From Escherichia phage RB69, in the sequence record NC_004928.1: a stretch of DNA of 64,000 nt, one strand, 5' to 3'. The translations under genes were made by a program, and so were the position numbers. The notes beneath the pieces were generated by a model. That model did no database searches. It saw nothing but the letters and a program-made list of their open reading frames with translations, and was not told where the DNA came from. Shown here one piece after another: positions 30,432 through 45,186 of the stretch. Within the stretch, counting starts at the first letter, position 1. Each line of letters opens with the position of its first letter.

Positions 30432-30740
30432 TCAATTAGAAAATAAATTTATCCAAGTTTTTTCTTTAATCAAAAATGGGTCGGAATTAAACGCCATTAA
30501 ACTTTGAGTGATTAATCCCTTAAATGGCCCATCAATAAATTCCATTTTGAAATGCGGAATACTAGTCATCAACCGTGCATTAGGAGCAGTACAAAGAACC
30601 TGCTGCCCTGCGAACGGACCTTTAGTCAAACGGTATCGTTTAGGTTTAAAATGGTAAATCTCGTAATTTTCTACAAGAGCCCTTTTATTGCATACTGGGC
30701 TGTTATAACAATATTCAAAAACTTCAATAGTGGTCATCAT
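30432..30740 (-). CDS. hypothetical protein
   Basis: Track ORF 30432..30803 trimmed to internal ATG. Confidence 0.4.
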   Translation of the reverse strand: MMTTIEVFEYCYNSPVCNKRALVENYEIYHFKPKRYRLTKGPFAGQQVLCTAPNARLMTSIPHFKMEFIDGPFKGLITQSLMAFNSDPFLIKEKTWINLFSN

Positions 30741-31312
30741 TGCATTCCAATCACAAAAAATTGAGGACGAGCAATACCGCCGATGCAATATTTGCTTTTG
30801 CAACAGTGTTGGACTGTTTTAATATGTATGTCGTAAATCTTATCCATATCAGGAGCTTTAATAGGCTCGTCAATTATATACAGAATACGAGAAAGCGTTA
30901 ATCCACGGAATTTAGAACCTTCATTGCCAATAAAACTACGAACAGAATCAGTAAATAAACGGAATCGAATATCGTCGCTAGAATAACGAGAAAATTCTTT
31001 TTCAATGTTGCCAGCAGAAATTTTAGCATAAGCTGAAGTATTAGAAAGAACAATAACTGTTCCACCATCATACAGCCAATTAGCAGCAAAGTTAGTCACA
31101 GCAATTGATTTACCTGATTGTCGGCCGCCGTCTAAACGAAGTGTACAGTACTGCTTGAGTACGTCTTCAAATGGTGGGACATAACCGTTCTTACAAATTT
31201 CTTCTACTCTAGCATCAGAATGGTGTGTAAAAGCATTCATCAGGGATAGATAAGGTCCAGTTAAAAATGTTCTCATATTATTTCTCTTAAGGTTTTGGCC
31301 ATTCCGTGGCAC
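30737..31312 (-). CDS. small P-loop NTPase-like protein
   Basis: Walker A-like GGRQSGKS and Walker B-like ILYIIDEP. Confidence 0.4.
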   Translation of the reverse strand: MPRNGQNLKRNNMRTFLTGPYLSLMNAFTHHSDARVEEICKNGYVPPFEDVLKQYCTLRLDGGRQSGKSIAVTNFAANWLYDGGTVIVLSNTSAYAKISAGNIEKEFSRYSSDDIRFRLFTDSVRSFIGNEGSKFRGLTLSRILYIIDEPIKAPDMDKIYDIHIKTVQHCCKSKYCIGGIARPQFFVIGMQ

Positions 31313-31448
31313 ATGTTAGGTCCTTAGACTCGCTATGTAAACCCATTACCGCATTGCGCTCGACCTTATTACAGGTTGGAAAAGGTACATCACTCAGAGG
31401 ACTCGACGTTCATAAGGAGAGGTTGCGTTTCCCTTTATTAGGCAAGAA

Positions 31449-31778
31449 TTATACTCTAGGCTTTTGAGCTTGTTTGGTATTGGATTCCCATGCGGCTTTG
31501 GTAATTTTGTTAGCGGCATAACCAAAGGCATTAGATAGAACACCTTTAGAGTTGAATACATCCAATCCAATAAGTACACCGGCTGTGTTAAATTTAGGAG
31601 CAAAGTACGCATTAGTTTTAGAAAGAGCTTTTTTCAATTCAGGGTCTTGAACCAAGCCATCAAAAACGCCTTTACTATTTACTTTGTATGTTACTTTGGG
31701 ATTTTTACCTTCTTCGATAGCAGCTTTCTGTTCCGCAGATAATGTAACTGCAGCGATAAACTCCTGATATGTTTTCAT
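31449..31778 (-). CDS. internal-protein-like protein with capsid targeting sequence
   Basis: N-terminus MKTYQEFIAA matches the T4 internal protein leader (MKTYQEFIAE). Confidence 0.6.
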   Translation of the reverse strand: MKTYQEFIAAVTLSAEQKAAIEEGKNPKVTYKVNSKGVFDGLVQDPELKKALSKTNAYFAPKFNTAGVLIGLDVFNSKGVLSNAFGYAANKITKAAWESNTKQAQKPRV

Positions 31779-31846
31779 TTTGTTCCTATTGTTTTAATTT
31801 ATGTTATTCTTTAGGGAAGTTTTTAGAGTATGCATCATAAAGTTTA

Positions 31847-32119
31847 TTACCAATACGACGGAAGACTTTCAGCTGCAAAACGGTTTTCAGGGTTTTTAAT
31901 CATGATTTGCATCATGTAAGTTCCTGCATCCGAAAGAGCTTCTTCATAGTACCCATTAATTTCTTTAAGAGTCCTACGTTTACCGCCAGGACCGTCAACA
32001 GTAATTCTCCATTTACCTGTAGAAGTGCGGCTCGGTGGCTCAACTTGTTCAATCCAAATATAACCACCTTCAACGCGTTGGTTGGCGGATTCTGCAATAA
32101 ATTCTTTATACGTTTTCAT
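31847..32119 (-). CDS. internal-protein-like protein with capsid targeting sequence
   Basis: N-terminus MKTYKEFIAE. Confidence 0.6.
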   Translation of the reverse strand: MKTYKEFIAESANQRVEGGYIWIEQVEPPSRTSTGKWRITVDGPGGKRRTLKEINGYYEEALSDAGTYMMQIMIKNPENRFAAESLPSYW

Positions 32120-32138
32120 TTTTGTTTCCTTGTTTGTT

Positions 32139-32179
32139 TTGATAGAGTAATTATACCATATTAATACTTAAGCGTAAAC
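32139..32179 (-). promoter_or_regulatory. early promoter cassette (degenerate copy)
   Basis: GTTTAC ... TATAAT with GATAGAG core. Confidence 0.4.
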
Positions 32180-32182
32180 CGT

Positions 32183-32443
32183 TTAAGCTTGACCGCCAGA
32201 AATAATTCCGAAGTTGTTAAAATCGTATCCAATATCGTCAACATCTACTTTAGGACTTACTACAACATAAGCAATTTCACTACGTTTTGCATAGGTGTTG
32301 ATTTCTTTACCATCGCCACCTAAGAAAGAATACCCATTACGTTTTAATGAGCCAAAATCTTCCGCATCACCAATGAAAGCTTTAACTTTAAATTTAGGGT
32401 CTTTGGCATCTGCTTCAATGATAAATTCTTGATACATTTTCAT
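32183..32443 (-). CDS. internal-protein-like protein with capsid targeting sequence
   Basis: N-terminus MKMYQEFIIE. Confidence 0.55.
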   Translation of the reverse strand: MKMYQEFIIEADAKDPKFKVKAFIGDAEDFGSLKRNGYSFLGGDGKEINTYAKRSEIAYVVVSPKVDVDDIGYDFNNFGIISGGQA

Positions 32444-32449
32444 TTTTCC

Positions 32450-32863
32450 TTAGTAAATTGATTTACCATAGTATTTGTACCAAGTCGGACGTTGAGCAAT
32501 TTTTTCATCTAAGCGTGCTTGACTTATCGCAATGGACGCTTCGGACGGGACATAATTATTACGAAATTCGGCAGGGATGTCGGAAATATCCTGGACAGTC
32601 GTGTCCTTGATTTTGAAACCACGTTTCAAGCATTCAGCGATTAGTTCGATTTGACGTAAACGTAAAAATTCGAGTTTGTCGTAAAAGAATGTTACGTGAC
32701 CTGTGCCTAAGATAAATGTTGGAGAGATTTTAAAATCCTTTACACGTTTACCGTTTTGAACATGTTTACGGACTGCACCAAATACGCGTGGTAATTCACG
32801 ATACTCAGCCATAAGATGTTGGTCGGTCAGTTCAGAAACAAGTGTTAAATTGATACGAGTCAT
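32450..32863 (-). CDS. denV: endonuclease V (pyrimidine dimer DNA glycosylase) DenV
   Basis: [35 protein letters not shown] near-identical to T4 DenV; start trimmed. Confidence 0.9.
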
Positions 32864-32921
32864 AATTTCCTCCAAGTAGTTGATGAATGTATAGTATCAA
32901 AGTCCTTGGAGGAAGTAAACA

Positions 32922-33218
32922 CTATTTTTCTGAAGCGCCTGAAATATATTTTTCAAGACGTTGTTTCATTAGCGAGCCGTTCTTAGCGATTTCTTCCGGT
33001 TTATCGCACATACGCAACAAGGCTTCAAGCTTAACGATATCACTGGTGCGCTCAAATTTGCGAGTATCTATCTTGCTAGCAAGTTCAGAAATACGTGCTA
33101 ATAGACTTTCAGCTTCAACCAAAGCTGCACCTAGCTTCGTGGCAAATGTGTCAGTAGCTTCGTTAAGAGATAGATTCTGATAAAAATTCATGTATGTTTT
33201 CATATATACGCTTTCCAA
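32922..33218 (-). CDS. hypothetical protein
   Basis: 98-aa ORF between e and denV. Confidence 0.4.
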
Positions 33219-33688
33219 GTTCCTGTTTTAAATGTTGAGATTACGCGTTTCGCGCGATTAGGTGTCTGACGATACCATTTAGATTGGGCTAGATTTACTG
33301 CCGCTTCGTCCCAACGTTTCTGTTGAAGCATACGAAGAGAATTAGTAAAACCGGCGACGCCTGATACACCCATTTGGAAGACCATATTGACCAATGCACA
33401 CCGACGAACTGCATCTAAAGAATCATATACCGGTTTAAGTTTAGCATTACCCAAGATTCCGCGAACGGCTTTATCAACGTCTTCATTAAATAGCTTTTCA
33501 GCCTCATCAAGGGTAATTGTACCGTTGCATTTACGGCCGATCATTCTGTCAAGTTCAGCTTTAGCTACGGCTAAAGACGGGTTCTTTGTTACTAAATGGC
33601 CTATGCCAATCGTCCAAAAGCCTTCAGTGTCTTTGTATAAAGTCAGTCTAAGACCTTCGTCATTACGAAGCATTTCAAATATATTCAT
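33200..33688 (-). CDS. e: lysozyme (endolysin) gp e
   Basis: [32 protein letters not shown] near-identical to T4 lysozyme; start trimmed. Confidence 0.9.
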
Positions 33689-33722
33689 AATACCTCCCAC
33701 GTTTATAGGAGGTATTTATTAC

Positions 33723-34181
33723 TTATAGGAGGGTAGTGAGCACCTTATATAATGATTTGCCCATTACATATTCCCATTGAGAAGGTTTAATTAAAGCGAA
33801 TGCATCAAATTCAGGAATCTGTCGTCCGTCTGGGAATGTATGATAGGAATTACAAACACTGTTTCTGAATTGCTCGTGCTCTACAGGGATGGTATATAGG
33901 AACAGATGAATATTCTTATTGTCTGAGTAATGATGTTCACCTAGGTCTTTCAGGAAGGCAGGGTCATATTGTGTAAACCCAGTTTCTTCTTCGCATTCAC
34001 GAATAGCGGCTTCAATAGGAGATTCGCCAGGTTCGACACGGCCTTTAGGAATATCCCACCGATGAGCTAATGCACCTTTAGGACGAGAACCAGTTACACG
34101 CCCCATGAATAATTCTTTATCTTCGGTAAGGAAAATAATACCGGCTGATAGTTCTTTCACTTTATTTTTCTTACTCATCAT
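33723..34181 (-). CDS. nudE: Nudix hydrolase NudE
   Basis: Nudix box GRVEPGESPIEAAIRECEEETG; position after e as in T4. Confidence 0.8.
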   Translation of the reverse strand: MMSKKNKVKELSAGIIFLTEDKELFMGRVTGSRPKGALAHRWDIPKGRVEPGESPIEAAIRECEEETGFTQYDPAFLKDLGEHHYSDNKNIHLFLYTIPVEHEQFRNSVCNSYHTFPDGRQIPEFDAFALIKPSQWEYVMGKSLYKVLTTLL

Positions 34182-41420: not shown

Positions 41421-41549
41421 TTTAAAATTATTTACCTAGTTTAGTTATTATAGCTTCGGCAGCAGCTTTTAGCTTAGATGCAGTGTTAATACGATTTTTA
41501 ATTTCGGTATACGCATCGCCAAGAACATCAAGGCTATCAGAATAAACAC

Positions 41550-41990
41550 TTACACTATTGCGTTCGCTATTTTGAATAGAACCTTTAGTTTTACGATCAA
41601 AATCAGTGTACACGTCTTGAAGACACGGGCTGCCTTCTTTGCATCATCCAATGCATCAAGAGCTTTATTCAAAGCATTGACATATTTTTTAGTGTCAAAC
41701 ATATTCTTAGAAATTTTAACAGGTGCACGTTCAGGAGTAGCTAAGGCGGATTTAGGAACCTGCGTGCCAGATGCCAGTTTCTTAGAAATTTTGAAAAACG
41801 CTTTATTGAAACTATTTTCTTGACTCATCGTAAAAGAACTAGTATCGATGTTATACATTTCAATAGCTTTAGCTTTCCACTTAAGAAAATCGCCACGGTC
41901 TTTTGGATCCAAGTGGAAGAATACTTTAGTAAGATCTGCTTCAGATGGTAATTTTGCTGCTTCGGTTAAAAATTCGGCATAGGTTTTCAT
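41550..41990 (-). CDS. internal-protein-like protein with capsid targeting sequence; 3' end uncertain
   Basis: N-terminus MKTYAEFLTEA; a second frame (41428..41613) stays open to the terminator. Confidence 0.5.
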   Translation of the reverse strand: MKTYAEFLTEAAKLPSEADLTKVFFHLDPKDRGDFLKWKAKAIEMYNIDTSSFTMSQENSFNKAFFKISKKLASGTQVPKSALATPERAPVKISKNMFDTKKYVNALNKALDALDDAKKAARVFKTCTLILIVKLKVLFKIANAIV

Positions 41991-44448: not shown

Positions 44449-44736
44449 TTACAGAAGAGTTTTTGCAATAATTTTAAGCTGAGCTACAGAAATATGCTTA
44501 GCTTTAAACAGTGCAGTCTCTTCAGCCGGAGAGATAACAATAGTAGCGCCATCTTTCTTAGCAGACCATCCATCCCCTAAGTAAACAGTACCTTTTACTT
44601 CTTCGCCGTCAACCAGACTAATCATTGGTTTACCCTCACGTCCTTTATTTGCTTTAATAACTTCGGAAGTAAGGGTTGCTTCGGTCAGAGTAGAAACGTT
44701 AGCAACAGGTGATATAAATTCTTTATAGGTTTTCAT
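44449..44736 (-). CDS. internal-protein-like protein with capsid targeting sequence
   Basis: MKTYKEFISP leader; start trimmed. Confidence 0.55.
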   Translation of the reverse strand: MKTYKEFISPVANVSTLTEATLTSEVIKANKGREGKPMISLVDGEEVKGTVYLGDGWSAKKDGATIVISPAEETALFKAKHISVAQLKIIAKTLL

Positions 44737-44758
44737 TTTAGGTTCCATTTTGTTGTTT

Positions 44759-44798
44759 TGATAGGACTACTATAACATAGTCCTATCGTGTTGTAAAA
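44759..44798 (-). promoter_or_regulatory. early promoter cassette (canonical family)
   Basis: TAGGACTA-tgttatag-TAGTCCTA with -35 TTTTACA. Confidence 0.5.
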
Positions 44799-45109
44799 TA
44801 TTTTATGCCTTTAGATGAAATAGTATTCTGGCGTTTGACCCCTGTTTGTGAAAAATCATGGTTATCAATTTGGTCAACTCGCATAACACCAAATGCAGAT
44901 TTAATTTTAGCCTTTGAACCTTTTTTGATACTAATTACCATATAAGTATCATTTTTCTTATATTCGAAATTTGTTACTTCAACGCCTTGATTAGAAATTG
45001 ACTTAATAATAGCATTAGCGTATTCATCATCTAACGGACCGTTAGTGTTAATAACAAAATTTTTATCTGCTTTAGTAGCTTCCGCGATGAATTCTTGATA
45101 GGTTTTCAT
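44783..45109 (-). CDS. internal-protein-like protein with capsid targeting sequence (ipI position)
   Basis: MKTYQEFIAEA leader; located directly before 57B as ipI is in T4. Confidence 0.55.
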   Translation of the reverse strand: MKTYQEFIAEATKADKNFVINTNGPLDDEYANAIIKSISNQGVEVTNFEYKKNDTYMVISIKKGSKAKIKSAFGVMRVDQIDNHDFSQTGVKRQNTISSKGIKYFTTR

Positions 45110-45133
45110 TTTATTTCCTTGAGGTTGTTTATT

Positions 45134-45173
45134 TGATAGGATGATAGTAACACACCATCATCCTTATGTAAAC
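45134..45173 (-). promoter_or_regulatory. early promoter cassette (AGGATGAT..ATCATCCT palindrome variant)
   Basis: GTTTACA ... TATCATCCTATCAAA. Confidence 0.45.
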
Positions 45174-45186
45174 TGTTTTGTGAAAA

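Follow-up and report, generated by a model that had tools for sequence, protein, structure and literature searches.

What is the role of three small, adjacent phage genes whose products share a ten-residue leader and nothing else? The question is raised by a locus of Escherichia phage RB69 (sequence record NC_004928.1), of which one stretch of 64,000 nucleotides (nt), here called the window, was analysed. Three open reading frames (ORFs), ip109, ip90 and ip86, encode proteins of 109, 90 and 86 amino acids (aa) that start with MKTYQEFIAA, MKTYKEFIAE and MKMYQEFIIE, respectively. A first-pass annotation of the sequence had reported these ORFs and had ascribed their common leader to the internal proteins (IPs) of T4. 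Translation confirmed the N-termini, and the ORFs lie exactly where they had been placed (Table 1), all on the minus strand, which had been left unstated. The leader had also been recognized correctly: IPII and IPIII of T4 both begin with MKTYQEFIAE, and the N-terminus of IPI is MKTFKEFTSTTTPVSTITE (T4 record).

The answer that we consider likely is that ip86, ip90 and ip109 are three cassettes of a T4-type internal-protein system, the products of which would be packaged into the head, cleaved, injected into the host and directed against its defences. Such a tagged cluster is in itself a known, textbook feature of T-even-type phages, and public records already list two of the three genes (ip90, as Ip10, and ip86) as internal head proteins. 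From the identity of the leaders, the synteny of the locus, the variability of its cassettes, the unrelated bodies and the protease and scaffold genes of the closest relative, we infer packaging, cleavage, injection and an anti-defence role for these particular proteins.

A shared leader in a classical internal-protein locus

The window is about 98% identical to the Escherichia phages a20, NRG-P0074 and APCEc01, and several hundred other T4-like coliphages are similar. The closest matching records are classed in the genus Mosigvirus of the Tevenvirinae; over this region, phage HY126 and the window share 97.3% identity. In the direction of transcription, the genes are ordered nudE, e, ip93, denV, ip86, ip90, ip109 and a vs.8-like gene. 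The corresponding interval of T4 reads e, ipIII, ipII, denV, vs.8 (T4 record). By gene order, the three-gene array occupies one of the two classical, hyperplastic internal-protein loci (e-denV-vs.8, the other being 57B-tRNA), in synteny with T4 ipIII and ipII. The cluster had been described as one of three genes. All three are real, but a fourth tagged gene, ip93, is found on the other side of denV.

The leaders of ip86, ip90 and ip109 fit the pattern M-K-[T/M]-Y-x-E-F-I of the capsid targeting sequence (CTS). A six-frame scan of the window found MKxYxxF at the head of seven ORFs of at least 60 aa, each time on the minus strand. The motif did not occur at such a position in any of 200 shuffles, and 0.02 cases are expected from the amino-acid composition. 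At the DNA level, the leader and the ribosome-binding site form a 42-nt direct repeat with 62-74% identity, and an AGGA/AAGGA Shine-Dalgarno-like site precedes the ATG of each of the three genes by 4-8 nt. The leader codons vary synonymously among the copies (ACA/ACG/ACC, TAC/TAT, GAA/GAG, TTT/TTC, ATC/ATT/ATA) and M1, K2, Y4 and F7 are invariant across the tagged leaders. The constraint thus acts on the peptide, and not merely on the repeated DNA.

What such a peptide can do is known from T4. A review of the work of Mullaney and Black 1996 (PMC9026906) states that foreign proteins enter T4 heads when they are given no more than the N-terminal 10 residues of IPIII. Within this peptide, targeting depends on residues 4 and 7, and processing on residues 8 and 10, with an Asp at position 10 blocking the processing only.

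The start of ip86 requires a comment. In the annotations of APCEc01 (L001 3884-4138), phi25-307 and a20, its homologue begins at the second ATG (MYQEF..., 84 aa), by which the first two residues of the CTS are dropped (window 32438-32443). Relatives of ip86 start with MKTYQEF or MKTYPEF, which speaks for the first ATG as the genuine start.

Cleavage sites and lesions in this genome

The first-pass annotation had proposed that the leaders be aligned for the cleavage site of the prohead protease. This site, [L/I]-x-E at residues 8-10, is present in ip86 (I-I-E, then A) and in ip90 (I-A-E, then S), but it is absent from ip109, the leader of which ends in Ala and not in Glu. In all relatives examined, the ip109 leader reads MKTYQEFITE, so that the gene family possesses the I-x-E and only the present allele, with I-A-A, does not. 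The two substitutions responsible, T9A (31754) and E10A (31750), are private, being carried by 0 of 75 phage records. The sole other [L/I]-x-E of ip109 is IEE at residues 21-23, a motif that the Dhakavirus homologue lacks. Because the Asp10 mutant of IPIII is targeted but left unprocessed, the same is predicted, by analogy, for the Ala10 protein: it would still be targeted, without processing at the usual site.

The lesion in ip90 is of another kind. Its body is about 96% identical (tblastn) to a region annotated as "ip10: Ip10 internal head protein" in PP01 (LC348379), and relatives measure 104-105 aa. In the window, a 1-nt insertion at 31870 cuts the protein to 90 aa: residues 1-84 are still about 95% identical to Ip10, and behind the +1 frameshift a different sequence stands in place of the C-terminal 21 residues. 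The 21 lost codons are 100% intact in the other frame (31807-31869). The insertion is found in none of 75 phage records. The isoelectric point (pI) is 9.6 for the full-length Ip10 and 6.2 for the truncated form. Among the 105 ORFs of a20 that have window counterparts with at least 80% identity, a split between frames is seen in the Ip10 gene alone.

Truncations or frameshifts also occur in several ip86 and Ip10 homologues (P0004, P0009, P0011, P0013) that stem from assemblies of metagenomes or read archives. These may reflect frequent decay or errors of assembly.

Unrelated bodies in narrow families

Behind the leader, the three proteins are unrelated to each other, as had been asserted. BLASTP between them gave a best E of about 1, and the profile-profile comparison (hhalign) of the leaderless bodies a probability below 1%. 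No similarity was found either between the leaderless bodies and T4 IPI, IPII and IPIII or the Ip7-like protein (again with a best BLASTP E of about 1 and a profile-profile probability below 1%). This is the pattern of the T-even internal proteins, in which the conserved CTS is the sole common part of otherwise diverse anti-defence proteins (PMC3012670, PMC2839356). The PHROGs clustering groups ip109 with ip90 (phrog_3966), and it puts ip86 together with the Ip7-like protein (phrog_2667). Both groupings were rejected as signs of kinship, as the leaderless profile-profile comparison gives them no support. Judged by these sequence comparisons, both clusters appear to be composite.

The families themselves are very narrow, with 2, 2 and 12 clusters in large protein databases, and neither the three proteins nor the locus had a significant match in PDB, Pfam, NCBIfam or Rfam. 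The ip86 body was matched in 216 phage records, sometimes at two places per record, and its homologue is labelled "internal head protein" in the records of APCEc01, a20 and phi25-307. For ip90, the body was matched in 188 phage records, among them phages of Enterobacter, Kosakonia and Erwinia, in which the identity is about 50%. The body of ip109 was found in 89 phage records, and nearly all of these among the matches listed are labelled "hypothetical protein". A more distant homologue of ip109 is encoded next to denV in the Dhakavirus AnYang (119 aa, about 32% identical, leader MKTYQEFITE). For ip86 and ip109, no numbered Ip name was found.

The predicted mature proteins are small (8.2-10.7 kDa) and differ in charge: the pI is 9.7 for ip109, and for ip86 (76 aa, 8.2 kDa) it is as low as 4.9.

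In an exhaustive HMMER search, ip109 was also matched to giant bacterial repeat proteins. Its residues 10-93 (31449-31751) were aligned with MBG_2 (YGX-type) repeats at about 32% identity per repeat and a pairwise E of about 6e-5. These matches were rejected as evidence of homology, the scores being probably inflated by the repeats: both giant proteins that were scanned consist of MBG_2 repeats, and the scores are summed over as many as 13 repeats. The remaining HMMER matches belong to its own narrow family or to unrelated repeat proteins, and the Pfam MBG_2 model is absent among the ip109 matches at E up to 1.

Promoters, stem-loops and the exchange of cassettes

The cassettes are flanked by early-type promoters with stem-loops (PeSL-like elements) that follow the early-promoter consensus TTTACW-17 nt-TAYWAT (taken from PMC4122927). 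The element upstream of denV folds with -17.8 kcal/mol (z = -3.8). The hairpins upstream of ip90 are weak (z = -1.7). In the second IP locus of the window (44449-45175), strong PeSL-like stem-loops are present as well, with z = -4.5 before the IPI orthologue and z = -3.4 before the Ip7-like gene. The promoters of these two genes, of denV and of ip90 have the form GTTTAC, about 17 nt, TAnnnT. In T4, the same layout of promoter and stem-loop is seen upstream of ipI, ipII, ipIII and denV. As ip86 starts 7 nt past the stop codon of denV, with no promoter of its own, and ip109 equally lacks one, the likely transcription units are denV-ip86 and ip90-ip109. The promoter upstream of denV presumably drives denV and ip86, and that upstream of ip90 presumably drives ip90 and ip109.

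In the literature, more than 30 IP variants at two variable loci with PeSL-like flanks are described (Repoila et al. 1994 and Comeau et al. 2007, via PMC2839356 and PMC4122927). The arrays of relatives of the window display the same variability, and the hypervariable pattern that had been claimed for the three genes is borne out: the presence and absence of cassettes differ between near-identical phages, the flanks of which are 97-98% identical. The arrays of APCEc01 and a20 match that of the window. In phi25-307, a T4-type IpIII and IpII are inserted between Ip10 and ip109. Contigs of the Av-05 type carry ip86, IpIII and ip109, and other contigs ip86 and IpIII only. PP01 and FelixPlatter possess Ip10 and IpIV (Ip4) in the absence of denV, RB32 has Ip4 alone, and AnYang contains five tagged genes around denV. 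The composition of the array also varies in IMG/VR loci.

Proposed mechanism and the points that weigh against it

The proposed route starts in the assembling prohead, where the CTS (the first ~10 residues) would dock each small protein onto the scaffolding core. The prohead protease gp21 would then cut after the Glu of [I/L]-x-E and free a mature protein of 8-11 kDa in the head. The expected mature lengths are 76 aa for ip86, 80 aa for ip90 in this genome (94 aa for Ip10 in relatives) and, in relatives, 99 aa for ip109. The genes for the gp21 protease and for the core proteins gp22, gp67 and gp68 fall outside the 64-kb window. In a20, the closest relative, there are genes for the portal, the prohead core, the scaffold and the head maturation protease, and their order is that of T4.

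In the next step, the mature proteins would be ejected with the DNA into the next host cell, where they most likely neutralize a first-line defence. By analogy with Ip1-3 of T4 and with Bas37_0260, the target of each is probably a modification-dependent (type IV) restriction enzyme, and each body would be specific for one variant. Cassettes would be exchanged between related phages, probably via the repeated promoter/stem-loop elements and the conserved leader.

Internal proteins are a countermeasure that is loaded in advance: they enter the cell together with the DNA, ahead of all expression of phage genes. The reported targets cover four CTS proteins only (Ip1-3 of T4 and Bas37_0260) out of more than 30 variants. 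The targets of the orphans ip86, ip90 and ip109 could be discovered by existing screens and would be useful for the prediction of host range in phage therapy. Their discovery would extend a known principle and not reveal a new one.

Several observations weigh against this proposal. The bodies of ip86, ip90 and ip109 have no homology to any characterized inhibitor (T4 IPs and PDB sequences). However, the known inhibitors are mutually unrelated (PMC12373910), and the missing similarity therefore discriminates little. The AlphaFold2 models are too poor for a comparison of folds, with a mean predicted local distance difference test score of 46.6 for ip86 (11-sequence alignment) and 46.1 for full-length Ip10. 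The acidic ip86 differs from the mature IPI*, IPII* and IPIII* of T4, all of which are basic, and ip109 is without Glu10 in this genome. No virion proteomics or N-terminal sequencing of these proteins or their Mosigvirus homologues was found in the searchable literature. Furthermore, Mosigviruses such as RB69 and HY126 contain arabinosylated 5-hydroxycytosine in their DNA and not glucosylated 5-hydroxymethylcytosine (PMC13326640), so that the targets may differ from the GmrSD variants that are countered by the T4 proteins.

The exact late promoter TATAAATA is also absent from 31-34 kb of the window. As ipI, ipII and ipIII of T4 equally have no TATAAATA directly upstream, this absence is not counted against the interpretation. 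Upstream of gene e (33689-33730), the window contains late-promoter-like boxes with one mismatch, TATAAGTA and AATAAATA, and the more degenerate TATAAACG; gene e of T4 is preceded by two exact TATAAATA boxes.

Alternative explanations

One explanation is compatible with the internal-protein system as an account of the gene families and concerns only the alleles of this genome. The repertoire may be partly decaying here, ip90 being a recent pseudogene, ip109 uncleavable and possibly non-releasable, and only ip86 fully functional. We regard this as possible, on a tentative footing. It would account for the private +1 frameshift in ip90 with its intact downstream codons, for the standing of ip90 as the one split gene in the comparison with a20, and for the private T9A and E10A of ip109. 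Moreover, a second CTS gene of the window (41550-41990) is frameshifted, and the leader of ip93 carries a compensated frameshift. The pattern of frameshifts and substitutions resembles that of dispensable IP genes under relaxed selection. T4 requires IPIII to grow on ECOR17, and it readily loses ipIII in laboratory evolution (PMC9391042); decay at the level of the allele fits these "use it or lose it" dynamics. On the other hand, there is a single assembly, in which local sequencing errors are possible. A general sequencing error was considered as the source of the ip90 frameshift and judged unlikely, since only one of the 105 genes is split, which argues against a generally error-prone assembly. 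The shortened ip90 also keeps 84 of 104 residues in frame. Finally, the Ala10 form of ip109 may yet enter the head and be cleaved at IEE23; the Asp10 form of IPIII is targeted, although it is not processed (PMC9026906).

A second explanation keeps the packaging and changes the target. The cassettes typical of Mosigviruses (ip86, Ip10 and ip109) may counter defences other than the GmrSD variants that T4 Ip1-3 block, the acidic ip86 may act differently from the basic T4 IPs and the Ala10 form of ip109 could stay uncleaved. The arabinosylated DNA and the charge of ip86 point in this direction, and we hold this set of proposals to be rather unlikely. If it were true, arabinosylated-DNA-sensing nucleases, McrBC-like enzymes and first-response systems other than restriction would become candidate targets; ip86 might, for instance, be a nucleic-acid mimic, and the Ala10 protein might remain tethered to remnants of the core.

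It is improbable that the packaged proteins serve the virion itself, as basic counterions of the DNA or as helpers of head assembly, without any anti-defence target. Like the T4 IPs, ip109 and full-length Ip10 are basic, and the T4 IPs bind DNA at low salt, with IPIII mutants assembling heads more slowly (PMC9026906). However, ip86 is acidic, all three T4 IPs have specific restriction-enzyme targets (PMC12373910), and the gain and loss of cassettes among phages that are about 97-98% identical here fits host-specific accessory functions better than a structural requirement.

Last, the early-type promoters, the absence of an exact late promoter and the 42-nt repeat could suggest that the common N-terminus is a relic of cassette shuffling (a module for recombination or translation initiation) and that the proteins are early, cytoplasmic and unpackaged, but this is highly improbable given the constraint on the peptide, the packaging of foreign proteins by the same 10 residues in T4 and the early-promoter layout of ipI, ipII and ipIII, which are packaged nevertheless (PMC9026906).

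Other tagged genes and neighbouring features

The array of the window is interrupted by denV and bounded by gene e and the vs.8-like gene (Table 1). The start of ip93 overlaps the stop of the lysozyme gene e (ATGA), and its product is 46% identical to Ip5 of RB32. Its leader has been altered from MKTYSEFLSESILNE by the compensated frameshift (+1 at 33169, -1 at 33190), which is private among 232 records. It retains Y4, F7 and an L-N-E site but no longer has E6 or the L-S-E site, and ATDTF comes after the leader.

The seventh tagged ORF (41550-41990) lies outside both classical IP loci, beyond the genes for tRNA-Arg and tRNA-Met, in a segment that is missing from a20. Its homologues in IMG/VR measure 187 aa vs 146 aa here, and a different frame, at 41431-41643, still encodes the C-terminal part.

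Between ip109 and the vs.8-like gene there is a gap of 172 nt (31277-31448). No minus-strand ORF and no Rfam match were found in it, and it folds no better than its shuffles do (z = +1.8). The annotation of a20 puts a plus-strand "hypothetical protein" in this gap.

Table 1. Positions of the tagged genes, their neighbours and the promoter elements in the window
Feature	Position	Strand	Description
vs.8-like gene	30737..31276	-	Downstream boundary of the IP locus; phrog_1488; synteny with vs.8 of T4 and PP01
ip109	31449..31778	-	109 aa; leader MKTYQEFIAA, then VTLSAE...; basic body, pI about 9.7
ip90	31847..32119	-	90 aa; leader MKTYKEFIAE, then SANQ...; member of the Ip10 family
Early-type promoter (TTTACG, 17 nt, TG-n-TATAAT)	32150..32178	-	Upstream of ip90; 10/12 matches, extended -10
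ip86	32183..32443	-	86 aa; leader MKMYQEFIIE, then ADAK...; phrog_2667 "internal head protein"
denV	32450..32863	-	Endonuclease V (pyrimidine-dimer glycosylase); Pfam Pyr_excise, phrog_1183; non-IP gene inside the array, as in T4
T4-early-type promoter with embedded stem-loop (PeSL-like, GTTTAC ... TACTAT)	32864..32925	-	Upstream of denV; inverted repeat
ip93	32922..33203	-	93 aa; Ip5-like fourth tagged gene; phrog_3499 "internal head protein", E = 2e-44; directly upstream of denV
Gene e	33200..33688	-	T4-type lysozyme; Pfam Phage_lysozyme; upstream boundary of the IP locus
Seventh tagged ORF	41550-41990	-	146 aa; leader MKTYAEFLTE; phrog_2280
T4 IPI orthologue	44449-44736	-	Second IP locus, next to 57B; body about 94% identical; leader MKTYKEFISPVANVSTLTE
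Ip7-like gene	44783-45109	-	Second IP locus, next to 57B; leader MKTYQEFIAE

Comparison with known systems

The closest known counterparts by position are IPII and IPIII of T4. They share with the three window genes the locus between e and vs.8, next to denV, a near-identical 10-residue CTS with I-x-E, the small size and the early promoters with stem-loops. Orthologues of both are moreover inserted into the corresponding array of the close relative phi25-307. However, the bodies are dissimilar, the three window genes lie downstream of denV and the T4 genes upstream, and ip86 is acidic. In T4, Ip2 acts on GmrSD-ECOR21 and Ip3 on GmrSD-ECOR17 (PMC12373910); these targets are not transferable to the window genes.

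IPI of T4, the mature form of which (IPI*) is a GmrSD inhibitor with a structure solved by nuclear magnetic resonance, resembles the window proteins in the functional class proposed for them: it is packaged by its CTS, processed by gp21 and injected, and its mature form measures 76 aa, as is predicted for that of ip86. It differs in its longer, divergent propeptide of 19 residues (MKTFKEFTSTTTPVSTITE), its position at the other IP locus and the lack of similarity to the three bodies. The anti-restriction role that had been named for IPI is well documented and applies more widely: Ip1, Ip2 and Ip3 counter one GmrSD type IV restriction enzyme each, in every case a different one and without cross-protection (PMC12373910).

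By sequence, the nearest known protein is Ip10 of the T2-type phages (ip10 of PP01; series Ip4-Ip10, Repoila et al. 1994), with which ip90 shares its locus and a body that is almost identical. The window copy differs from it in being shortened by the frameshift (90 vs 104-105 aa).

Finally, the T-even-type phage Bas37 encodes a CTS protein, Bas37_0260, that inhibits the type IV restriction system McrBC (HIDEN-SEQ preprint, bioRxiv 10.1101/2025.11.20.689424). The likeness, drawn by description only, consists in the N-terminal packaging signal, which is the only part that it has in common with IPI-III. Bas37_0260 differs from the three window genes in its position, which is the ipI locus. As its case shows, an orphan CTS cassette can be directed against an enzyme that is not a GmrSD.

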